Source: a virus (lineage: Duplodnaviria; Caudoviricetes). Taken from it: a DNA stretch of 25,299 nucleotides. How positions within the stretch are numbered: the stretch's first letter is position 1; the number at the start of each line of letters is the position of its first letter. Positions 484-20,264 of the stretch are shown here, piece after piece. Made by a program: the position numbers and the translations under genes. The notes beneath the pieces were generated by a model that saw nothing but the letters and a program-made list of their open reading frames with translations, made no database searches and was not told where the DNA came from. The stretch spans positions 1 through 25,299 of IMG/VR virus record IMGVR_UViG_3300049171_000176; one strand, 5' to 3'.

Positions 484-515
484 GCCCCCTCCCAGCGGTG
501 AGGCTGGGAGGGGGC
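484..515. terminator. Terminator-like hairpin
   Basis: Perfect 13-bp stem GCCCCCTCCCAGC/GCTGGGAGGGGGC with a 6-nt loop, just after the stop at 476; weak U-tail on the minus strand. Confidence 0.7.
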
Positions 516-622
516 GTGCCCGCTGTCGGGGCGGGCGTGAATCGTTCGGAGCGTGCAGCGGATCGGATTGCCGCCCGTGCAATGTGCGCTCATGGTGGAC
601 AGGGCGGGCCCGGCGACTCGGC

Positions 623-628
623 TAGGAT
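623..628 (+). promoter_or_regulatory. Possible -10 element (TAGGAT) for the acyltransferase
   Basis: TANNNT hexamer 25 nt upstream of the proposed GTG start at 654; no clear -35 at canonical spacing. Confidence 0.3.
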
Positions 629-653
629 CACGACGTCGGAAACCGGGGGTCAA

Positions 654-2795
654 GTGTCCAATCTCACAGTCGCGCGCGCAGCATCCACACGACGTGAGGA
701 GCCTGAGAAGAAAAGCCGGTTCCGGCCTGATATCCAGGGCCTCCGCACGGTAGCCGTCCTCGCGGTGCTCGTCTACCACCTGAACTCGGCTTGGCTGCCA
801 GGCGGGTTCGTCGGCGTGGACATCTTCTTTGTCATCTCCGGGTTCCTCATCACCGGCATCCTCCTCCGACAGCTCGAGTCGACCGGACGCATCTCCATCC
901 GGGAGTTCTACGGCCGCCGGGCCAAACGGCTCATCCCTGCCGCGACGCTCGTACTGCTAGCCACACTGGGGCTGTCGTTCCTGATCCTCCCGCCGACCCG
1001 GTGGGAATCGATCGGATGGGACGGAATCGCGTCCGCGTTCTACGTCGAGAACTGGCGCCTCGCCCAGACCTCCGTCGACTACCTCAGCCTGGATGCGGCG
1101 CCCAGTCCACTGCAGCACTTCTGGTCCCTCGGGGTCGAAGAGCAGTTCTACCTCGTGTGGCCATTCCTGCTCGTCCTCGTCGGCCTCTTCTTCGCCAGCC
1201 GTCACCACCACCGGAGCCGCTCACGCCGCATCACTAGCCCGCGGTTCCGCCCCGCTGTGCTTGCAGCGCTGGCGGTCGTCACAGTCCCGTCGCTGCTCTG
1301 GTCGATCTACTACACGTCCGAGAGCGCCGGCCCTGCATACTTCGTGACCACGACCCGCATGTGGGAACTAGCCATCGGAGCGATCGTCGCGGCGGCGGCC
1401 GTCTACATCGCCCGCCTGAATAGGGCTGTCCTGATCGTGGCGGGATGGGCGGGCATCGTCGGGATCATCGCGTCCCTCACCCTCATCGGCCCCGGCGTTC
1501 CCTACCCCGGGGCAGCGGCACTCCTACCGACAGTCGCCACCGCGCTCGTCCTCGCCGGCGGAATCGTGCCCGCCCGATACGGACCCGGCATCGTCCTCGG
1601 CATCCGCCCCGCCGTCTTCGTCGGCGACATCTCCTACTCCCTCTACCTGTGGCATTGGCCGCTGATCGTGCTCGCGACCAGCATCCTCGGAGAGATCAAC
1701 CTCCTCGCCGCCGCAGTGCTCGCTGCCCTCTCAATCGGCCTGGCGTGGGCCACGTACCGCTGGGTCGAGAACCCGTTCAACACCGCGAAGGTCCTCACCG
1801 ACGAGCCCTCGAAGGCGATCGCTCTCGGCCTGTGCCTGATGATCGTCACGGGCCTCGCGGGCGGTGCGTTGATCTTCGCCTTCCGCGACGCGCAGAACGC
1901 GGCGCGCGCGTCCAGCTATGTCGCTCCAGAAGCGACCGCCGGCCTCGACGGCGAGCCTGCCCAGATCGAGCAGGGCGCCCTCCTCCTACCGAACCCTCCG
2001 GCAGGAACTGAGCCCGTCGCGACGTCGGAGATCATCACGCCTGCTGCGATCAACGCGGCGGCGGATTGGCCAAGCTGCCCCACATCCGCTGTCGACTCGA
2101 GCGAGGTGAAGAGCTGCTCGATCGGCCCGGAGGACGGCACTCGCGTTGCTCTCGTCGGCGACTCCCACGCGAAGCAATGGATTCCCGCGTTCCAGACGGT
2201 CGCCGCCGAGCGCAACTGGCGGGTGACCGTGTACATCCACGACGCGTGCCCCTTCGCGCTAGGCGAGCTGGTGCGCCAGGGAGCGCCGTACGAGTCGTGC
2301 ATGGCGTGGAACGAAGCAATGCAGGGCGTGCTCGCCAACGATTCGGCGCTGGCGATGGTGTTCACATCGAACTACACCGACGCCGCTGCAGTCTCGGGGA
2401 GCCGCGGGGTTGCAGGCATGGCCGAGGCGCACGCCGCCGCGTGGAAGCCGCTACTCGATCGCGGAACCCCCGTCGTAGCGATCCGAGACACACCCGCCCC
2501 CAAGATCGACGTGCCGGAGTGCGTCTCGCAGAACGAGAGCAACCTCCTCGCGTGCGCTGTACCTCGCGAACAGGCGAGCGACAACCGCGGGCTGGCCCTC
2601 GTCGAGGCCACGCAGCGAGAGTCCCGGGCTGCGCTGGTCGACCTGAACGAGTACATCTGCCCGGGCGCGTCCTGCGCACCTGTGATTGGGAACGTGCTCG
2701 TCTACCGCGACCTCAGCCACATCACTGCCACCTACGCGAAATCGCTCGGCCCGATTCTGAACGAGCGGCTGACGAGCGTCGTTCCCGGCAGCTAA
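654..2795 (+). CDS. O-acyltransferase: acyltransferase-3 membrane domain fused to an extracytoplasmic SGNH domain (OafA/OatA-like architecture)
   Basis: AT3 motifs FRPDIQGLR..AV..V..YH, GVDIFFVISGFLIT, FYGRRAKRL.P, HFWSLGVEEQFY and SYSLYLWHWP; many TM segments; SGNH motifs GDSHA and DxxH (YRDLSH). Start moved from 498 to GTG 654 because the longer ORF starts inside the hairpin. Confidence 0.93.
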   Translation: MSNLTVARAASTRREEPEKKSRFRPDIQGLRTVAVLAVLVYHLNSAWLPGGFVGVDIFFVISGFLITGILLRQLESTGRISIREFYGRRAKRLIPAATLVLLATLGLSFLILPPTRWESIGWDGIASAFYVENWRLAQTSVDYLSLDAAPSPLQHFWSLGVEEQFYLVWPFLLVLVGLFFASRHHHRSRSRRITSPRFRPAVLAALAVVTVPSLLWSIYYTSESAGPAYFVTTTRMWELAIGAIVAAAAVYIARLNRAVLIVAGWAGIVGIIASLTLIGPGVPYPGAAALLPTVATALVLAGGIVPARYGPGIVLGIRPAVFVGDISYSLYLWHWPLIVLATSILGEINLLAAAVLAALSIGLAWATYRWVENPFNTAKVLTDEPSKAIALGLCLMIVTGLAGGALIFAFRDAQNAARASSYVAPEATAGLDGEPAQIEQGALLLPNPPAGTEPVATSEIITPAAINAAADWPSCPTSAVDSSEVKSCSIGPEDGTRVALVGDSHAKQWIPAFQTVAAERNWRVTVYIHDACPFALGELVRQGAPYESCMAWNEAMQGVLANDSALAMVFTSNYTDAAAVSGSRGVAGMAEAHAAAWKPLLDRGTPVVAIRDTPAPKIDVPECVSQNESNLLACAVPREQASDNRGLALVEATQRESRAALVDLNEYICPGASCAPVIGNVLVYRDLSHITATYAKSLGPILNERLTSVVPGS

Positions 2796-6608: not shown

Positions 6609-7055
6609 TCAGGTAGATGGTTCGGTGTCCTCGAGGTCTGGCTCGGCGGACAGGTGAGTGATTCCGAGCCGCACCAGGATCGGGAGCGGCAGGGTGGGCA
6701 TCGGGCCCGGGCGGTTGCGGATGTTCCACAGCCAGAGCTGCGTCTCGCGGGCGCGGATCGCGTCGTTCATCTCGTGCGACTCGCGACGCATGTCGCTCAT
6801 CGACTGCTGCAGCTCGGCGAGTTCGGCCTGCATGCCGGCGACTGCGGCCAGGACGCGCTTCTCGACGACGGAGTCGACGTACCCCTGAAACGCGGTCTGC
6901 CCCTTGAGGAACGCGTCTGTCGCGGATGCTTCGACCTTGGTCTCTTCGATCTCCTGATCGACACGCTTCCCGCGGAACAGGAACCATGCGCCGATGAACG
7001 CTGCGACCGCGCCGCCGAGGCCGGTGATGATGCCCGTCCAGATAGCCGTCTCCAT
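6609..7055 (-). CDS. Single-TM plus coiled-coil membrane protein of the lysis cassette (148 aa)
   Basis: N-terminal TM (IWTGIITGLGGAVAAFIGAWFLF) then RGKR and a heptad region; TGATG overlap with the upstream gene. Confidence 0.8.
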   Translation of the reverse strand: METAIWTGIITGLGGAVAAFIGAWFLFRGKRVDQEIEETKVEASATDAFLKGQTAFQGYVDSVVEKRVLAAVAGMQAELAELQQSMSDMRRESHEMNDAIRARETQLWLWNIRNRPGPMPTLPLPILVRLGITHLSAEPDLEDTEPST

Positions 7056-12490: not shown

Positions 12491-15400
12491 CTACTGAGTC
12501 GGCGGCAGCGAATCGAGCGCACGGGTGAGCCCGAGCTTCTGCTCGCGCGCGATGTCCCGCGGGTCGTACGCGTAGTTGTCGCCGTTGTGGATGACCTGGA
12601 TCGGCGGCATGGTCGACGGCCCGGGACCGGACGGTGACGGCGCACCGGCCAGACCCTCGTCGGGTCCACCGGGCATCCGGCGCAGCGCTTCCATGAGGAT
12701 CGCCCAGGAGCGCGCCGAGCCGTCGAGAGGCACGTACGCCTCCGGCACGTCGCCGCGATCGCCGACTACTCGCCATGTGTTCGCGGGCACCATCTGCGCG
12801 ACGGACTGCATCGGGCTCAAGCCCGGGATGCCACCCGCGGCCATGAACTCGAGCACGCCGCCCATCGCCTGCTGCGCCATTCCCCGGCCACCACCGCCGC
12901 CCGAGTTGATGGCGTCGATGTACATGTTGAATCGGCGTCCGGCGTTCCTGCGGATGAAGTCCTCGACGGAATTCTGTGCCGGCGATGTGTCCGCTCGGAC
13001 CACGACCGACCCGTCCGGGAGGGTGGTGATCCGGTCGGCGAGGGACTGCACTCTGCCCTGCTCCGAAGGGGCGTTCGACGAGAACGCCGTCGTCGCCGAC
13101 TCGGGCGTCTGCAGCACCGTGTCGATCAGCGATCGAGCCTGCTCCTCGGTGAGGCCCATCTGTGTGAGCTGCCCGACGAGCGCCGACGTCGCAGTGTTGT
13201 ACCGACCGGCGAGCTGCTCCTGCGACTCCCCCGCCATGTCCGCGGCGTAGATCTCATCCGAGAGCGCGGCGATCGCGTTGCGGACCTGACTCTCGAGCTG
13301 ACGCCCGGCCTCAGTCGCACCGAGGTTCGCCAGCTCGATCCCGTTCAGCGAGATCTGCGAGCCGTCCGCGGCGTACCCGATTTCGTCGATCGCCCCAGCG
13401 AGCCGGAGCGAAGCGTCGTTCAGGTAGCCCATCGCCACCGCGGGCTCGCCGAACTGATTCAGCTTGTCCCGTGCGGCATCGAGCGCCCCGCCGACCTGCT
13501 CGCGCATGGTGTCCGCGGTCGTCGACGTCGAGTCCTCGAACTCGCGCATCCCGTCGACCATCTCCTGGATACCGTCGGCCGCGTCGTTCTGACCGAGCCA
13601 GCGCATGAGGGACGCAAGCCCCTCCGCGGCATCCGCGAGCGGACCCGACACGAACTCTCCGAAAGCCTCCGTTCCGGATGCCGCCGACTCGAGCATCGAC
13701 TCTCCGAAGTCAAGAGCCCCGTTCGCGAGGTCGAGGAAGAACTGCAGCATCGGGCCACGGTTCGACGCGATCCAATCCGCGGCATCCCCGAGCGGGTCCG
13801 CGAACGCCGACGCGAGAGCACCCTGGATTCCCTGGGCAGCGACCTCGATGTTCCGCCGTGCACGCTCGACGCGCGAGGCGTCGTTGTCAGCGAGCGTGTT
13901 GTACATCGCCTCCGCTGCGCCGGCCACTCCGTTGAGGGAGTCGACTGCGGTCGAGAGGTCCATCGCGAACAGCGCGTCTCCGAGGTCCTCGGCTTTGGTG
14001 CCGAACAGCTCGACGGCCGCAGCGTTCCGGATCACCGGGTCCTCGATGGCGCGGAGCCCGTCGAGCGTCTGCTGCAGACCCTCTCGTGCGGAGTCGCCAC
14101 CAGCGGCGATCTTCGCCGTCATCTCCTCCGCGGAGAGACCGAGCCGCTCGAAGCCGCGAGCCGAGGACTCCGACCCATCGGTCGCCCGGATCTGGAACTC
14201 CTTGAGCGCGTCGGCCGCGACGTCGGTGTTCCGAGCGCCGGCCTCCAAACCCTGGTTGATCAGGCCGAGCATCTCTTCGCCCGTGAGCCCGAGCCGGCGC
14301 AGCACGACCGGATACTCGGTCAGCGTGTCGAGGAGGTCCTCGTTCCGGTTCAGTCCCTCACGAGCGCCGGCCGCGAGGAGGTCATACGCCTCTTTGGCGG
14401 ATGCCGCCATGCCGGTGCGGAGCAGAGTCGCGACGGCGGTCGCCGTGGGCTGCACGTCCTCCTCGAGGACGTCGGCGATACCGGCGAGTCCCTCGACGAC
14501 CTTCTGCGACTCGCGGGCCGTGGCGTCACCGTCGATCAGGTTGAACTGCAGCGCCAGGCGCGAGGTGTTCATATTCGACTCGATGGACTCGCCGAAGCCG
14601 TTCGCGTACGCCTCGCCGGCAGCGCGGGCGAACCGGGCAGCGTCGTCCTCGGTGATGCCGGTCAGCGCCTGCAGTCGGTCCTGCCGCACCTCGACCTGTA
14701 GTGCGTCGTTGAACGAGTCGACGAGCTGGTCGCCGATCGCCTGCCCGATGGAGACCACGGCGCCCGCGACCGGGATCGATGCGAGACCGGCGACGATTCC
14801 CGTCAGGAGACCAGCGCCGCCGCGGCGACCACCGTCCTCCCCTGCGTCCTCGGCGAAGTCGGCGACGTCCTGGAGCTTCTGCTTCGCGCCGCCCTCGTTG
14901 ACGTCGACGATCATCGTCGCCCGTGCGCCCTGCAAATCCTTGAGCGCTGCCTCGGCGCCGGCCAGGCGAGCCTCGGCCTGGGCGACGTCGGCGGTCACGT
15001 CGACGGTCGGCGACAGCGACTGCAGGTAGTCGATCTCGGAGCGGATGTCGGCGACGGCCCGCTCGGCGTTCGCGACGTTCGCGTTCACCCGGAGGGCGAC
15101 GTCGCGGGAGACGAGCTGCTTCGCCTCGCGGTCGACCTCCTGCAGCGCGGCCAGAGCCTGCGCAGGGTCGGCCTCGATCTCGATATTCGACCGTGCGGTG
15201 CGGAGTCGCTCGATCTGCGTCTCGAGGCGCTGCACCTGCTGCTCGGCGCGGCGCACGTCGGCGGTCACGTCGATCCCGCCCTCGGCTCGGACCGCAAGGT
15301 CCTCGAGACGGTTCTTCGCGCGGTCGAGGTTCTTCTCGGCCCGCTCGATGTCGGCCTCGACCTTGAGCACGGCCCGCTCGGAGACGAGCTTCTTGGCCTC

Positions 15401-15574
15401 GGTCTCGACCTTGTCCATCATGTCCAGCGCGCCGGTAGCGTCACCGTCGACCTTCGCGACGATCGGCTTCTTCTCGATCCGCTCGCCGGTCGCCCTGACG
15501 TTCTTCTCAGCCCGTCCCGCGTCCGAGTCGTCGACGGTCAGCAGCACCTCGATTGCACCGACACGGGTGGTCAT
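12491..15574 (-). CDS. Tape measure protein (1027 aa)
   Basis: Longest ORF, after the chaperones; Ala-rich helical; core motifs DLLDTLTEY, ADALKEFQIR and AAVELFGTKAEDLG; C-terminal A.GG...GDRG..PEAYVPL motif. Confidence 0.95.
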   Translation of the reverse strand: MTTRVGAIEVLLTVDDSDAGRAEKNVRATGERIEKKPIVAKVDGDATGALDMMDKVETEAKKLVSERAVLKVEADIERAEKNLDRAKNRLEDLAVRAEGGIDVTADVRRAEQQVQRLETQIERLRTARSNIEIEADPAQALAALQEVDREAKQLVSRDVALRVNANVANAERAVADIRSEIDYLQSLSPTVDVTADVAQAEARLAGAEAALKDLQGARATMIVDVNEGGAKQKLQDVADFAEDAGEDGGRRGGAGLLTGIVAGLASIPVAGAVVSIGQAIGDQLVDSFNDALQVEVRQDRLQALTGITEDDAARFARAAGEAYANGFGESIESNMNTSRLALQFNLIDGDATARESQKVVEGLAGIADVLEEDVQPTATAVATLLRTGMAASAKEAYDLLAAGAREGLNRNEDLLDTLTEYPVVLRRLGLTGEEMLGLINQGLEAGARNTDVAADALKEFQIRATDGSESSARGFERLGLSAEEMTAKIAAGGDSAREGLQQTLDGLRAIEDPVIRNAAAVELFGTKAEDLGDALFAMDLSTAVDSLNGVAGAAEAMYNTLADNDASRVERARRNIEVAAQGIQGALASAFADPLGDAADWIASNRGPMLQFFLDLANGALDFGESMLESAASGTEAFGEFVSGPLADAAEGLASLMRWLGQNDAADGIQEMVDGMREFEDSTSTTADTMREQVGGALDAARDKLNQFGEPAVAMGYLNDASLRLAGAIDEIGYAADGSQISLNGIELANLGATEAGRQLESQVRNAIAALSDEIYAADMAGESQEQLAGRYNTATSALVGQLTQMGLTEEQARSLIDTVLQTPESATTAFSSNAPSEQGRVQSLADRITTLPDGSVVVRADTSPAQNSVEDFIRRNAGRRFNMYIDAINSGGGGGRGMAQQAMGGVLEFMAAGGIPGLSPMQSVAQMVPANTWRVVGDRGDVPEAYVPLDGSARSWAILMEALRRMPGGPDEGLAGAPSPSGPGPSTMPPIQVIHNGDNYAYDPRDIAREQKLGLTRALDSLPPTQ

Positions 15575-15577
15575 GAA

Positions 15578-15912
15578 TCACCTCCGGGTGAGAGCGCGCC
15601 GCAGCCGCGAGGTGGACTCGGGCTCGAGCAGGCTGAATAGCTTCGTGCGGATGCCGGGCCACGGCCGAGCACGGACGGCGGGGTCGTACAGGTCGATCCC
15701 CGCGTCGATGAGGTCGGCGACGACGAGCCGCCAGTGGGAGACGATGGCGAGCAGCGACGAGTCGATCGTCGGCGCCTCGTCCGGGGTGGAGACCGCGGAG
15801 GGTGCTTCGGGCAGGAGTTCTTGCGGCACCGGCATGTAGTCCGGATACCAGCCCTCTTCGTCGGGTTCACCGATTCCGTAAGGCGCCCAGTCCTCCGCGG
15901 TCTCTAGCCTTT
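15578..15912 (-). CDS. Frameshifted C-terminal part of the tail assembly chaperone (gpGT-like)
   Basis: Protein-like sequence in the -1 frame starts at the slippery site (PKRLETAEDW...WRLVVADL...GIDLYDP...PWPGIR...SRLRRAL). Confidence 0.85.
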
Positions 15913-16341
15913 TGGGGCGGGTGCCGCCGCAGACTTCACACCCTGTTCCGCGTCCGCCTGCGCCCACAGGAGCACCGCAAGATTGCGGGCGTACTCCTCG
16001 CCCCTCGCCCAGTGAAAGATCGCGTAGTACGCCGCCCTGGCGATGGTTGCGGCGTTGATCCCCTTCGCCTTCATCTCGTCGAACGCGTCGCCGAGGGCGG
16101 GGTGATCCTCGGGCTTGACCGTCGCGAGCACGTCGAGGATCGGCTGCGGGATCTCCGTCTCTTTGGGGACGATGCCGAGGTTCACCTCGCCGCGGACTGC
16201 GAGAGCGAGAACCTTCGACATGTCGTCCACCGTCGGGGGGCGCACCGTAATGGTGTGCCCCCCGACGCCCTCGGCATTCGCGCCGAGGTTCTTGAACACG
16301 AGATCCGGCGCCGCCCACTCCGCGAAGTCGACAGCGCTCAC
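15904..16341 (-). CDS. Tail assembly chaperone (gpG-like)
   Basis: Lies between major tail and TMP; ends in the slippery heptamer. Confidence 0.88.
   Translation of the reverse strand: MSAVDFAEWAAPDLVFKNLGANAEGVGGHTITVRPPTVDDMSKVLALAVRGEVNLGIVPKETEIPQPILDVLATVKPEDHPALGDAFDEMKAKGINAATIARAAYYAIFHWARGEEYARNLAVLLWAQADAEQGVKSAAAPAPKG
15910..15916 (-). other. -1 programmed ribosomal frameshift site C CCA AAA
   Basis: In-frame GCC CCA AAA GGC TAG matches X XXY YYZ; a -1 slip gives CCC AAA AGG CTA GAG into the downstream ORF. Confidence 0.85.
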
Positions 16342-16343
16342 GC

Positions 16344-17108
16344 TCAGGCTCCGCGCGTGTAGGCGAACGGTGCCGAGGAGCCGCCCGGCGTGGTGACGAT
16401 GATCGGCTCGGAGCCGGCGTCGCCCACGGGGATCTGCATGACGATGCTCGCGCCGTTGATCACGAGGAACTCGGCAGGGTCGCCGCCGATCGTGACGTTC
16501 GTCGCGCCGATGAAGCCCTGGCCGGTGATCGTCACCAGGTCGCCGTCGAGCGCACCCTCGGGCGTGACCGCGGCCACGAGCGGAGCGGTGACGCCCCAGC
16601 CGGTGAACGGGTTCGCGATCTCTTCGTACGCACCCTTGCCGGAGAGCGTGAAGCCGAGCACCTCGATCTCGCCACCGGGGCCCGTGTTCTGACGCGTCTT
16701 GGCGACGGTCGCCTGACCGCGACCGGCGTCAGTCGGGTTCGGGGCGCCGACGGCGGGCTTGTGGTACCAGCGCACGTCGGCGATCGCCAGCTCGCCGACA
16801 GCGGTCGGCTTGGTGCGGGCGAGCAGGTACTCGACCTCGGGCATGAAGAGACCCGTGTTGACGTTGCGGTGCACCTGGACGTTGAAGCCGAGGCCCCAGC
16901 CCCAGCCGGTCACATCCGAGTTGGGCGCGCCGAGGTCGTCGTACGTCTGCGCGTCCTGGGTCGTCGGGGTGTCGGTGGGCTGGTAGCCGAACAGGCGGCG
17001 GATCGCCTGCCAGATCGGGTCGGCGTAGGTGCCGAGGTTGACGTCCACGCCGTACTCGAAGCTCTTACCGAGCGTCGCGCCAGCGGGGAGAGGGGCGAGC
17101 ATGTTCAT
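16344..17108 (-). CDS. Major tail (tube) protein with a C-terminal IPT/TIG Ig-like domain (254 aa)
   Basis: ATG 17108 (ATGA overlap, GGAG SD); TQDAQTYDD and FTLSGKG tube-like motifs; VTP..A..GDLVTITGQGF.GAT.VTIGG...VTTPGG IPT/TIG pattern. Confidence 0.88.
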   Translation of the reverse strand: MNMLAPLPAGATLGKSFEYGVDVNLGTYADPIWQAIRRLFGYQPTDTPTTQDAQTYDDLGAPNSDVTGWGWGLGFNVQVHRNVNTGLFMPEVEYLLARTKPTAVGELAIADVRWYHKPAVGAPNPTDAGRGQATVAKTRQNTGPGGEIEVLGFTLSGKGAYEEIANPFTGWGVTAPLVAAVTPEGALDGDLVTITGQGFIGATNVTIGGDPAEFLVINGASIVMQIPVGDAGSEPIIVTTPGGSSAPFAYTRGA

Positions 17109-17512
17109 TGCTGAGTCTCCGTTTCGAGGATTACCTGGTAGTTGTCGGACCGTTCTTCGCGGTTCGACTCGTCGGCCCCGAGGGGACCACTTGAGATGCG
17201 ACGGATGTCGCTGATCCCTCCCGCCCGGGAGAGTCCGTGGAGCACGATGAACGCAACGCTCGCGAGAGCATCCGCGCCCGTGCTGTCGTAGGGGCGACCG
17301 CGGAACCTGAGCTGCACGCGACGGACGAGCAGATCGCCGTCGGTGTGCCCGTAGACCCGCACGCCGATGGCGCGATCCGGGTTCGGTTGCACGACCCCCT
17401 CGAAGATCGCGACCTGCTCGGCCGGCATCTCCTCGGCGTCCGGGTCGTAGAAGAATCCGGGGATGCGTCCAAGCAGCGTGCACACAGCGCGAGTGAGCGT
17501 GACGTCATCCAT
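17105..17512 (-). CDS. Tail terminator ('minor capsid' family) protein (135 aa)
   Basis: ATG 17512 with GGAGG; PDRAIGV, RVQLRFRG and PLGADESNREERSDNY motifs; sits before the major tail gene. Confidence 0.82.
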   Translation of the reverse strand: MDDVTLTRAVCTLLGRIPGFFYDPDAEEMPAEQVAIFEGVVQPNPDRAIGVRVYGHTDGDLLVRRVQLRFRGRPYDSTGADALASVAFIVLHGLSRAGGISDIRRISSGPLGADESNREERSDNYQVILETETQQ

Positions 17513-17669
17513 CGGTACCGTCCTCCAGCCGACGCCGCATCTCGGCGAGCGCGCGACGGGATCGCACCGTGGCGTCGAGTGGAATGAAGTACTCCGGTCG
17601 GTCGCCGAGGACGCGCAGCACGGATTCGCCGGGGGGCAGGAAGCCGCCCCTCGCTTCGCGCTCAGCCAC
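17505..17669 (-). CDS. 54-aa protein similar to the tape measure C-terminal motif (not in the ORF track)
   Basis: MAEREARGGFLPPGESVLRVLGDRPEYFIPLDATVRSRRALAEMRRRLEDGTDG; overlaps both neighbours by 8 nt (GTGGCTGA, ATGGATGA) and fills the gap exactly. Confidence 0.8.
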   Translation of the reverse strand: MAEREARGGFLPPGESVLRVLGDRPEYFIPLDATVRSRRALAEMRRRLEDGTDG

Positions 17670-17979
17670 CGAGCGCCGCCCTCACTCGTGCGGCCACGGC
17701 TTCCTCGACCGAGACCGAGTCGGCGGCGGTTTCGAGGAACTTTGCCTGTCCGCCGTTCGGATGGTTCCAGTCGAGGCGCTCGTGCTGCAGCCACGCGTGC
17801 GGCGCAGTCGCGGCGACGGTGACCTCACCGTCAGCGACGGTGACACGGAACGAGTCCTTGAGGTCGCTGTCGTCCTCGGGGGCGAGGTTCTTCGCTTCGC
17901 GCATGAGTTGCCGGCCGCCATCGCGGAGGCCCTCGGTCGCCGCCTTTTCGATCGTCGACTGGATGGGAAGCATCTTCAT
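17662..17979 (-). CDS. HK97 gp10-like tail completion/neck protein
   Basis: AKNLAPEDDSDLKDS, HAWLQHE and GGQAKFLE motifs; GGAGG SD. Confidence 0.85.
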   Translation of the reverse strand: MKMLPIQSTIEKAATEGLRDGGRQLMREAKNLAPEDDSDLKDSFRVTVADGEVTVAATAPHAWLQHERLDWNHPNGGQAKFLETAADSVSVEEAVAARVRAALGG

Positions 17980-17991
17980 GAGGTCCTCCGA

Positions 17992-18321
17992 TCAGGTGAG
18001 GGAGAGAACGAGCTGGGACGCGAGCGGCGGCTCGTTCTCCTCGACGGACACGGCGAGAACCGTCGCGGTCCGCTCGCGCGCCCTGCCGGGCCACACGGTG
18101 ATCTCGGACCCGAGCGGGACGTCGGTGTCGATGGGGACGGTTACGCGGGAGGACGACACGACCTCGCGACCGTCCGCGGTCCGCACCATCCGTGCGCCGT
18201 CGAGCACCTCGGCTTTGATCTCTGGGTTCTCGTCGTCGAGCCGCGGGCCGCGAGATCCGCCCTGCAGCAGTCGGCGCACGCGCACCTTGTGCGGCCACCA
18301 GAACGGGTCATCCCAGCTCAT
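17992..18321 (-). CDS. Head-to-tail stopper/closure protein
   Basis: Size and position; RMVRTADGREVVSS and VPLGSEITV pattern. Confidence 0.78.
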   Translation of the reverse strand: MSWDDPFWWPHKVRVRRLLQGGSRGPRLDDENPEIKAEVLDGARMVRTADGREVVSSSRVTVPIDTDVPLGSEITVWPGRARERTATVLAVSVEENEPPLASQLVLSLT

Positions 18322-18716
18322 GCGTAGGTCTCCGGCCAGAGCCTCGACACGGGACGGTCAGTCGGGAAGGACCCACGGGGAAGGCCTGGCCGCGACACCG
18401 TGTCCCCTGCGGCCTCGGCCTGCAGCAGACGCAGCCCGGAGAGGTCGTCGTCGAAGAATGCGGAGCGCACGTCGCGGGAAGAGATGCTCGTGCCGTTCCG
18501 GGAACGTGAAGCGGTGGTGCCGGTTCCGATCTCCTCGGCGCGCTTGTAGACGCCCTTGAGGATGGCCAGCGCATCGGCGCGCGGCTCTGTTCCGGTGTCG
18601 AACGTCACGATGAGCGGGGCGATCTCTCGCGCGCGGATCAGGATGCGGCGTGCGAGGTCGGCGTCAGCGCCGATGTCGGTCGGCTGAATGGCGCCCGTTG
18701 CGAAGGCGATAGGCAT
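18318..18716 (-). CDS. Head-to-tail adaptor/connector protein
   Basis: First neck gene; helical N-terminus with A..IAP and AILKG...R, then FFDDDLSGLRLL. Confidence 0.72.
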   Translation of the reverse strand: MPIAFATGAIQPTDIGADADLARRILIRAREIAPLIVTFDTGTEPRADALAILKGVYKRAEEIGTGTTASRSRNGTSISSRDVRSAFFDDDLSGLRLLQAEAAGDTVSRPGLPRGSFPTDRPVSRLWPETYA

Positions 18717-18776
18717 TGGCGGTGGTCCCTTCGGCGTAGTGGCCGGGAGCGGGGCGCTCCGCCCCGGAGAACATGG

Positions 18777-18825
18777 GGACGGGACCAGCCCCGCGGCGCG
18801 CGCACGCGGGGGACTGGTCCCGTCC
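18777..18825 (-). terminator. Long hairpin after the capsid genes
   Basis: GGACGGGACCAG/CTGGTCCCGTCC (12 bp) plus CCCCGCG/CGCGGGG (7 bp) with a 2-nt bulge. Confidence 0.65.
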
Positions 18826-18846
18826 GGTAGCTGCCCGACCCGTAGG

Positions 18847-19359
18847 TCAGGACTTCTTGGCGTCCAGGTACTCCTGGATCGCGGCGAGCTTCACGTCCTT
18901 CGACGCGTCGTCTTTCAGCTCGACGGGCGGATCCTGGTGACGCGCCCACTCGTCGATCTGCTCGTGGGTCCACCCCTTCGCAGGGTCACCCTCGGGCAGG
19001 CCGGACGCAGCCTCCTCGGTGCGGGCGTCAGAGTTCGCGGCCGCTTTCACCTTCGCGGCCTCGAACTCCGCACGCTCGCGATCGAGGTCGGCCTTCGCCT
19101 GGGCGACCTTGCGCGCCTCGTCCTCGACGGCCTTCACCGCTTCGGCAAGTTCGGCTGCCGTGGTCGCCGACACCTCGTCCTCATCCGCGTCCGAGTCGAC
19201 GTCGTGCTCGACAACCTCGGGCTCGGGGGGGTTGAGGCGATCGAAGCGCTCGAGGTCGTCCTCGTGCACCTCGACCGTGTCGCCGAGCGAGCCGTGAGTC
19301 CACTGCCCATCCGGTCGCTGGTACGTGCCGATGCCTGATCGGATCGTCCGCTCGCCCAT
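18847..19359 (-). CDS. Post-capsid hypothetical protein (170 aa) with a coiled-coil middle and a possible HeH/LEM-like C-terminus
   Basis: ATG overlaps the capsid stop (TGATG); acidic linker; C-terminal WTHEQIDEWA...SKDVKLAAI. Confidence 0.75.
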   Translation of the reverse strand: MGERTIRSGIGTYQRPDGQWTHGSLGDTVEVHEDDLERFDRLNPPEPEVVEHDVDSDADEDEVSATTAAELAEAVKAVEDEARKVAQAKADLDRERAEFEAAKVKAAANSDARTEEAASGLPEGDPAKGWTHEQIDEWARHQDPPVELKDDASKDVKLAAIQEYLDAKKS

Positions 19360-20264
19360 CAGCCGGCCAGGCCCGTCAGCTTGAACACCGAGAAGGGGTC
19401 GGTGATGTACTGGACGAAGCGGGCCGAGGTCTGGACCCACGTCCGCTCGGTGTCCGGTTCACGCCACGTCTCCGTACCCAGCGGCTTCTCGGCGCGCATC
19501 TCGCCCGGCAGACCGGCCTGCAGCGCGTACGCGGTTCCCGGGGCGACGCGGTTCGAGGACATAGCGTTCTCGATGCCGTACGCGTCGAACAGCGCCTGCA
19601 GGTCATCGCCGTACACCAGACGGAGCTGGAAGAGCTGGTCCGGGTTGAAGACCAGCGTGTCGATCGCGACACCCAGTTCCTGCTCGTCGGCCTTCTTCAT
19701 GACCTTTGCGATATCCGCAGCCGGCCACGCCGACGCGTTCGACTGGCTCGAGCCGCCGGTGACGACGTTGTTCCAGTTGAGGCCTGTGATGACCTGCGAC
19801 GGGTTCGCCGTGATCGCCGCCTCGACGACTGCGATCGCACGTGCGTCCTGCCGGCGCACCATCGCGTTCATGATCTTGCGACCCTCGCGCTGGATCTTGC
19901 CGCTGTCGTTGCGGTCCCGCGCCTCGTCGGTGACGAAGAACTTGCCACCGTGCTTCTCGACGGCAGCGACCTTCGGCTCGCCATCCTCCGACGTGAGGTC
20001 CGGGAACTCCGCGCCGGGCGCGACCTCCTGAACGTCGCGGGTCGGGAACAGGTCGTTCAGCGTGAGCTGGTCGTAGATGACCGCCCCGCCGGACACACCG
20101 CCGGGCGTCGAGAAGAACAGCGGGCTGATGTAGTTCCGCAGCTCGATGTCCGACAGGTACCGGGTGATGCGCGTCGGCTGGTTGAGCATCTGCTCCACCG
20201 TGATGGTGGAACCGCTGACGGACGGCGCCGCGAAGGGATATGCGGTGGCGTTGGGGTTTGCCAT
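19359..20264 (-). CDS. Major capsid protein (301 aa)
   Basis: ATG 20264 with GAGGAG; VAPGAEFP, EKHGGKFFVTDEARDRN and DTLVFNP motifs; position after protease and decoration genes. Confidence 0.9.
   Translation of the reverse strand: MANPNATAYPFAAPSVSGSTITVEQMLNQPTRITRYLSDIELRNYISPLFFSTPGGVSGGAVIYDQLTLNDLFPTRDVQEVAPGAEFPDLTSEDGEPKVAAVEKHGGKFFVTDEARDRNDSGKIQREGRKIMNAMVRRQDARAIAVVEAAITANPSQVITGLNWNNVVTGGSSQSNASAWPAADIAKVMKKADEQELGVAIDTLVFNPDQLFQLRLVYGDDLQALFDAYGIENAMSSNRVAPGTAYALQAGLPGEMRAEKPLGTETWREPDTERTWVQTSARFVQYITDPFSVFKLTGLAG

Follow-up and report, generated by a model that had tools for sequence, protein, structure and literature searches.

A stand-alone copy of a tape measure protein module in the tail operon of a siphophage and its possible role as a decoy

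In five structures, those of F-pyocin, lambda, Douge, T5 and JBD30, the tape measure protein (TMP) segment which is resolved at the tail tip comprises the last 32–42 residues (accessible parts of bioRxiv 10.64898/2026.02.24.707460, PMC12617516, PMC13033339, bioRxiv 10.1101/2022.09.20.507954 and PMC11445458), and the accessible part of PMC10713586 agrees on this tip-resolved end. A module lying ahead of it, the sub-terminal module treated here, is not resolved in tail structures. In T5, the C-terminal fragment pb2C has 92 residues (PMC12617516, in part), and the cut was placed just before a metallopeptidase-like motif (bioRxiv 10.1101/2022.09.20.507954, in part). How and why the TMP is cleaved near its C-terminus is still open; for lambda, the cut site and the mechanism are stated as such in the available text of PMC12617516. 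The C-terminal fragments of both TMPs remain in the virion (available text of PMC12617516 and bioRxiv 10.1101/2022.09.20.507954). Two further proteins act on the TMP: Avs18 senses it via a central helix of about 130 residues (bioRxiv 10.64898/2026.01.04.697583, in part), and NBJ gp45 binds its residues 144–345 (bioRxiv 10.64898/2025.12.12.693979, in part).

The window, i.e. the whole stretch of 25,299 nucleotides of phage DNA analysed here, contains between two neck/tail genes a short gene, referred to as the mini-gene (product: mini), which appears from sequence comparison to encode a known TMP module in an undescribed free form. Among the open-licence literature listings, no paper on a stand-alone TMP-module gene was found. 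A natural stand-alone version of 50 residues isolates the module as a functional unit. The case also shows that coupled junctions within well-annotated tail operons can conceal genes too short for the usual length cut-offs.

[quoted passage not shown]

The window belongs to a temperate phage, and its minus strand carries the virion operon of a siphophage, with terminase, portal, Clp-like protease, capsid, connector, major tail, chaperone, TMP, Dit-like and hub-like genes. Since a near relative (terminator 61%, TMP end 79%) sits in Microbacterium trichothecenolyticum, the host probably belongs to the Microbacteriaceae. The initial annotation had described a 54-aa ORF from GTG to TGA between the gp10-like gene and the tail terminator, overlapping each by 8 nt, and exactly this ORF is present on the minus strand (Table 1). 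The mini carries ARGG at residues 6–9, Glu26, IPL and RS; an AF2 model of low confidence (pLDDT 58) predicts a hairpin (17–28) followed by a helix (35–50). Part of its conserved C-terminal tail can be attributed to the terminator GGAGG, because this site overlaps those codons. No promoter-like sites were found in positions 16300–19500 of the window. A fusion of mini and terminator by frameshifting was considered and rejected: the start-to-start distance is 1 mod 3 in four of four cases, but the 8-nt overlap accounts for this, and the terminator possesses a separate ribosome-binding site.

Table 1. Coordinates of the mini-gene, its junctions and neighbours, and the related parts of the TMP gene in the window
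Feature	Position	Strand	Basis
Mini-gene, 54 aa, free-standing compact version of the sub-terminal TMP module	17505..17669	-	GTG 17669 to TGA 17505
Start/stop overlap (8 nt) of mini-gene and gp10-like gene, GTGGCTGA	17662..17669	-	Sequence
Weak Shine-Dalgarno-like GAGGG, 9 nt ahead of the mini GTG	17679..17683	-	Sequence; putative function
Stop/start overlap (8 nt) of mini-gene and tail terminator, ATGGATGA	17505..17512	-	Sequence
GGAGG, putative terminator ribosome-binding site, within the last codons of the mini-gene	17522..17526	-	Sequence; putative function
HK97 gp10-like tail completion gene, upstream neighbour	17662..17979	-	PF04883, phrog_5
Tail terminator gene, downstream neighbour, 135 aa, ATG 17512	17105..17512	-	PF12691, phrog_2595
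TMP sub-terminal module, residues 903–972, parent of the mini	12659..12868	-	BLASTP and alignment of TMP ends
Predicted TMP terminal helix 1005–1022, likely tip-docking part, without copy in the mini	12509..12562	-	AF2; docking deduced from papers

Two other features of the window may be mentioned. A 765-aa O-antigen acetylase-like gene (498–2795, plus strand; phrog_6705, E 1e-142) runs opposite to the virion operon and is possibly a surface-modifying moron or a host gene. Furthermore, the tail assembly chaperone pair (15578–16341, minus strand) likely uses a programmed frameshift near 15904–15915 (C CCA AAA GGC region), as judged from the sequence.

BLASTP aligned the mini with residues 912–972 of the TMP (12491–15574; 25/61 identities, pairwise E 2e-7), and the whole match covers TMP residues 906–972 of 1027. 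The motif had initially been called a copy of the C-terminal motif of the TMP; a free-standing copy it is, but the copied part is sub-terminal. The Smith-Waterman score of mini and TMP was 79, a value reached by none of 10,000 shuffles (maximum 65), so that the proposed comparison with shuffled controls spoke for the similarity. Among 1,626 six-frame windows of 54 aa outside the TMP, the two that overlap the mini reached 73 and 67, and none of the others exceeded 52. A hidden Markov model of 30 TMP modules, gathered by means of the TMP alone, detected the mini at E 4e-5 among 11,195 segments, and a TMP-only model of 86 modules gave 21.9 bits. The core alignment quoted earlier (16/30 identities) was reproduced, as were the differing codon pairs; altogether 15 of the 27 residues identical in mini and TMP are encoded by different codons. 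Searches with the mini itself yielded no match in Pfam or PHROG, none among solved structures by sequence or by Foldseek (with low-confidence models), none by tblastn at E 10 in 50,697 GenBank phages, and no usable one in the ESM Atlas. A single-sequence protein search returned only the ORF itself, and a TMP-weighted profile search TMP fragments only.

The module follows the pattern A.GG…E.YIP…RS…E and is located about 55–125 residues before the TMP end. In the window's TMP it carries two A.GG motifs (903, 912) and Glu945, whose equivalent is the sole invariant residue of 70 aligned TMP ends. In the AF2 prediction of the TMP end (pTM 0.38), the module is extended and contains a helix at 954–966, and a terminal helix at 1005–1022 stands apart from it. 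All invariant Gly, Glu, Pro, Arg, Ser and Glu positions of the module are kept in the window's mini. When the near-invariant positions of 85 TMPs were inspected in the six minis known (see below), Pro, Arg and the helix Glu occurred in 6/6 each, and the central Glu and the first Gly in 5/6 each. An Ala-Gln segment between A.GG and Glu, found in 96%/89% of the TMP modules, occurs in 0/6 minis. The mini is not a TMP itself: it has 54 aa and neither the long helical body (PF10145) nor the terminal tip-docking helix.

This bears on an option of the initial annotation, according to which the mini regulates the site where the TMP sits on the hub, or keeps that site as a placeholder. The position in the tail operon is all that fits it; the hub-bound part of the TMP corresponds to the last 32–42 residues in the five structures cited above (as far as these sources are accessible), whereas the mini stops 55 residues before the equivalent of the TMP C-terminus and has no counterpart of helix 1005–1022. 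Because the likely tip-docking end is lacking, a link to the tail tip or hub was not supported, and a hub placeholder is very unlikely.

Some TMP ends deviate from the usual pattern. In otherwise close relatives (L002–L004, L040, L088, L102, L182), they contain a third A.GG-bounded module subtype (GEH), and that of L002–L004 gave no significant match to the module profile; since this subtype replaces the usual module in close relatives, phages exchange the module at their TMP ends. Long TMPs of about 1,500 aa (L197 and G157:C9, i.e. L266 and L274) contain the module twice.

Further copies, distribution and origin

A search for stand-alone homologues in related phages, as had been suggested, yielded five more copies (L001, L172, L174/L175, P0027 and L198), three of them in the same slot between gp10 and terminator. 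The copy of L172 (P0025, 49 aa) lies in this slot with overlaps as in the window, even though L172 is a distant phage (major tail protein 26%; terminator without detectable tblastn similarity); the copy of L174/L175, which is of this distant lineage as well, occupies the same slot with these overlaps. P0027 (76 aa) is without genomic context, and the mini of L198 (55 aa) is located ahead of a head-tail adaptor. All six minis reached 19.6–28.8 bits on the TMP-only profile of 86 modules, some of whose TMPs had been fetched with mini profiles, which introduces a mild circularity. When this profile was applied to 29,279 unique segments, 13 short matches with E<0.01 were obtained: four broken TMP pieces, five minis and four small ORFs between the terminator and the major tail gene. 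When 1.84 billion representatives were searched with a profile, four matches emerged, namely the two minis known by then, P0025 and a 4,352-aa protein, the last of which was spurious. Against GenBank phages, the L198 mini matched 109 records in all and the L172 mini 96, and among the matches listed 56/60 and 52/60, respectively, were annotated as TMP. In the ESM Atlas, P0025 found two clusters of hypothetical proteins of 47–49 aa (51 and 265 members, score 0.93) with only 104–106 shared features, so that kinship is a lead only. DNA-pattern scans revealed no new minis, and a match in VroomVroom was discarded as it is antisense to an annotated gene.

Parts of the module also occur elsewhere in late gene regions. 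A family of ORFs of about 100 aa starting with T-A-D-R-Y-R-E-A-G is located between terminator and major tail gene (L036:4867-5163, L070, L078, L084, L132, L146), and some of its members contain the Glu-IP-helix core of the module (four at E<0.01). Members of L077, L108 and L145 possess different inserts instead; two inserts of this family are presumably HeH/LEM-like, as judged by eye. In L262 (G092:C4:176007-176129, minus strand), just past an HNH-like gene and ahead of the terminase genes, the core without A.GG (E 0.0016) stands in frame with a further domain, which we take to be LysM-like. A weak copy of the core was seen at the N-terminus of a Clp-like head protease (L086:2265-3674, same contig as L010; E 0.59), and at the N-termini of the other listed proteases none was found.

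Among 87 distinct related loci in which both neighbours were located, four had a gap of >60 nt and two a mini. A second lineage of 17 loci comprised three with a mini (two distinct), two with an unrelated 35-aa ORF and 12 empty ones. Of 401 genomes each, those of the family contained one clear mini, those of the order none, and those of the genus one core-only ORF (L262). Because it is present in only 2/87 and 3/17 related loci, the mini-gene is an accessory gene which is gained and lost, and its absence from the other loci suggests that it is dispensable. This also conflicts with an earlier suggestion that it encodes a core structural part of the tail. The unrelated 35-aa ORF of L177 and L178, just before position 7001, contains two Cys and two His and uses the same slot with 8-nt overlaps. 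A second insertion hotspot was noticed in the interval between head-closure gene and gp10, with inserts of 300–700 nt (L010, L013, L028, L030, L034, L035, L036); several of these hold, by eye, lipoprotein- or membrane-like genes on the opposite strand.

The orthologue of L001 in the same slot shares 31/53 residues with the mini and differs by three indels, all of which are in frame, as would be expected from the conservation of frame asked for initially. Identity by codon position is 0.70/0.75/0.45, and the Nei-Gojobori method gave dN 0.34 and dS 1.18, i.e. a ratio of 0.29, also without the overlapped ends; gp10 and terminator of the same pair of loci have ratios of 0.44 and 0.31. These are small, protein-guided and near-saturated estimates. 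They suggest that the mini is under selection at the protein level. The earlier view that the similarity to the TMP reflects protein-level conservation rather than a recent DNA duplication agrees with this ratio of about 0.3, the different codons and the further copies on the TMP profile. The mini could also be a chance open frame in DNA of 68.5% GC: its codon-usage score of 0.20 is low beside the 0.32–0.67 of ten neighbours, and on the antisense strand the in-register frame is open as well (0.17). However, the shuffles, the in-frame indels and the five further copies oppose this, and the sense frame is favoured because of the divergence pattern at third positions. Thus, this explanation is largely refuted and extremely unlikely, and we regard it as confirmed, at the level of sequence, that the mini-gene is a real gene and a free-standing copy of the TMP module.

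The origin of the insertion can be traced at the junctions. At empty sites, gp10 and terminator are joined by the same 8-nt overlap, GTGGCTGA doubling there as the terminator start; inserts begin directly after this overlap and recreate it at their end. Capture by microhomology is plausible, because the junction codes for Met-Ala-Asp and the module begins with Ala-Asp-Gly-Gly and ends near the next Asp-Gly. The mini might accordingly be a mere passenger, a stretch of the TMP flanked by A.GG repeats which was caught at the junction and is kept open mainly since the terminator is coupled to it. The comparison of a filled and an empty site (L172 and L176) places the insertion directly after GTGGCTGAC, four slot minis end with DG/DA-stop where the terminator ATG lies, the terminator's ribosome-binding site restricts the choice of the last residues, and the slot accepts an unrelated ORF, too. 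Nevertheless, such a passenger is unlikely: keeping a frame open does not require particular residues, but the invariant positions persist although synonymous sites are near-saturated, the core-only dN/dS is 0.29, and five minis form one group (SH-aLRT 87), as would fit the spread of an old lineage from phage to phage. The sixth, from L198, falls among another TMP subtype, and the minis have longer branches than the TMP modules. Topology tests rejected neither a single mini clade (p-AU 0.357) nor a grouping of minis with their own TMPs (p-AU 0.2); the trees are based on 78–79 columns, and the second took 33/82 TMP rows.

Possible function of the mini

The reading which we tentatively prefer is that the mini is a late-made decoy; it would keep occupied a putative host partner, either a protease or an anti-phage sensor, by which the TMP module is recognised. 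Translation would be coupled to gp10, and the product would be made late, before the TMP and probably in excess of it. The module may be an exposed recognition or processing element, because the 92-residue fragment of T5 starts with an A.GG motif whose distance to Glu is the same. A free copy might then bind the partner of the module without being incorporated into the tail, and it would be useful only in hosts which possess that partner, hence gain and loss. Such a host-dependent benefit fits the patchy spread, the fast change and the shared insertion slot. The mini is a ready bait for the partner of the module, and if it acts as a decoy, it would reveal that some host factor watches tail assembly.

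Several observations argue against a decoy. The Ala-Gln segment is missing in all minis, and Avs18 binds the central TMP helix and not the module. In the window's mini, ARGG is preceded by five residues and an internal start is lacking; therefore its A.GG would not be N-terminal unless the product is cut. That the helix core recurs without A.GG in further small late genes would be explained equally well by a portable tag or by frequent duplication. Moreover, the minis do not consistently resemble the TMP of their own phage, which ranked 4, 48, 51, 58 and 1 of 86.

The latter ranks likewise bear on a phage-internal modulator, i.e. a free module which co-assembles with TMP modules or with a phage partner (chaperone, tip initiator) and would tune tail initiation or TMP maturation. 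The location in the tail operon upstream of the TMP gene, the retained invariant residues and the best scores of the window's and L198 minis with their own TMP subtype are consistent with this, as is the prediction of a TMP module without compact monomer fold in AF2 (pTM 0.38), as for a part which folds on a partner; TMP cleavage in lambda, stated as open in the source cited above, leaves room for it. Still, 85/87 close relatives make tails without a mini, and for three of five minis the TMP of their own phage is placed in the lower half of the ranking, which makes a modulator rather unlikely. It is because of this slot survey and the ranks of the cognate TMPs that a decoy is preferred over an assembly competitor.

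Apart from the decoy, the mini might be a minor virion component or docking tag, in which case the Glu-IP-helix core, by itself or joined to other domains, would anchor small proteins within the neck or the tail lumen. The core recurs in intergenic ORFs between terminator and major tail gene, ahead of the LysM-like domain and weakly at the head protease N-terminus, and the TMP fragments of T5 and lambda stay in the virion (see above). However, the mini has no terminal helix for anchoring and its occurrence is patchy, and this possibility therefore appears improbable.

Comparison with T5, lambda and known decoys

The last 92 residues of T5 pb2 begin with AEGG, and in pb2C the Glu follows 19 residues on, a spacing similar to that of the minis. 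A.GG lies within the first eight residues of all six minis (6/6) and at position 2 in 3/6, and its distance to Glu is 18–21 residues in the minis, 19 in T5, 19 in a Lactococcus TMP and 21 in lambda, in comparison to 33 in the window's TMP. The lambda TMP has A.GG at 734 and 779, flanking a similar segment, and the spacing of A.GG, Glu and Pro is colinear in this comparison. The actinophage module profile gave no significant match to T5 or lambda, as 687/1,000 and 205/1,000 shuffles, respectively, scored as high; in pairwise comparisons, T5 was matched as well by shuffles in 18/2,000 cases for the L198 mini, 116/5,000 for the Lactococcus TMP and 177/2,000 for the window's mini. A link of mini and module to TMP processing in T5 and lambda is thus suggestive, as a lead from sequence comparison. 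A farther-reaching version would regard the A.GG-Glu-helix module as a general cut signal of siphophage TMPs and the minis as self-mimic decoys which phages give off time and again and which titrate a host protease or sensor. Removal of Met would leave A-D-G-G in several minis, imitating a freshly cut N-terminus. We consider this version quite unlikely, but if true it would point to the enzyme that cuts lambda gpH and T5 pb2. Differences are also evident: pb2C is cut from the TMP and keeps the docking helix, whereas the mini is a separate ORF without it, and the His of the zinc-peptidase-like motif of pb2C is absent from the minis.

The closest relative by sequence is the sub-terminal module of actinophage TMPs (phrog_13339 positions 911–973), e.g. 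of Brevibacterium phage AGM, Microbacterium phage AvGardian and Gordonia phages, with which the mini shares A.GG, the central Glu, IP, RS and the helix. Unlike this module, the mini is free, comprises about 50 aa and lacks the coiled-coil body, the terminal helix and the Ala-Gln segment, and its spacing between A.GG and Glu is shorter than in the TMP of its own phage.

With regard to the proposed decoy, Avs18 and the exclusion proteins NBJ gp45, HK97 gp15 and Ltp show that the TMP is a target of defence, as this reading needs; according to the accessible parts of the sources, they act on central TMP regions and not on the sub-terminal module. The segment triggering Avs18 is absent from the mini, which matches TMP 906–972 only. 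A precedent which works alike is DSAD1, the SPbeta/phi3T inhibitor of DSR2, a small phage protein that rivals a tail protein at a host sensor (PMC11087589, in part). The likeness concerns the mode of action and not the sequence, and the accessible description does not say whether DSAD1 is a copy of the tube protein. Its target has been identified, the trigger being the tail tube (PMC11087589, in part), whereas the partner of the mini is putative. Like decoys of the DSAD1 type, the mini is small, patchy in its distribution and, judged by its absence from most related loci, probably dispensable.
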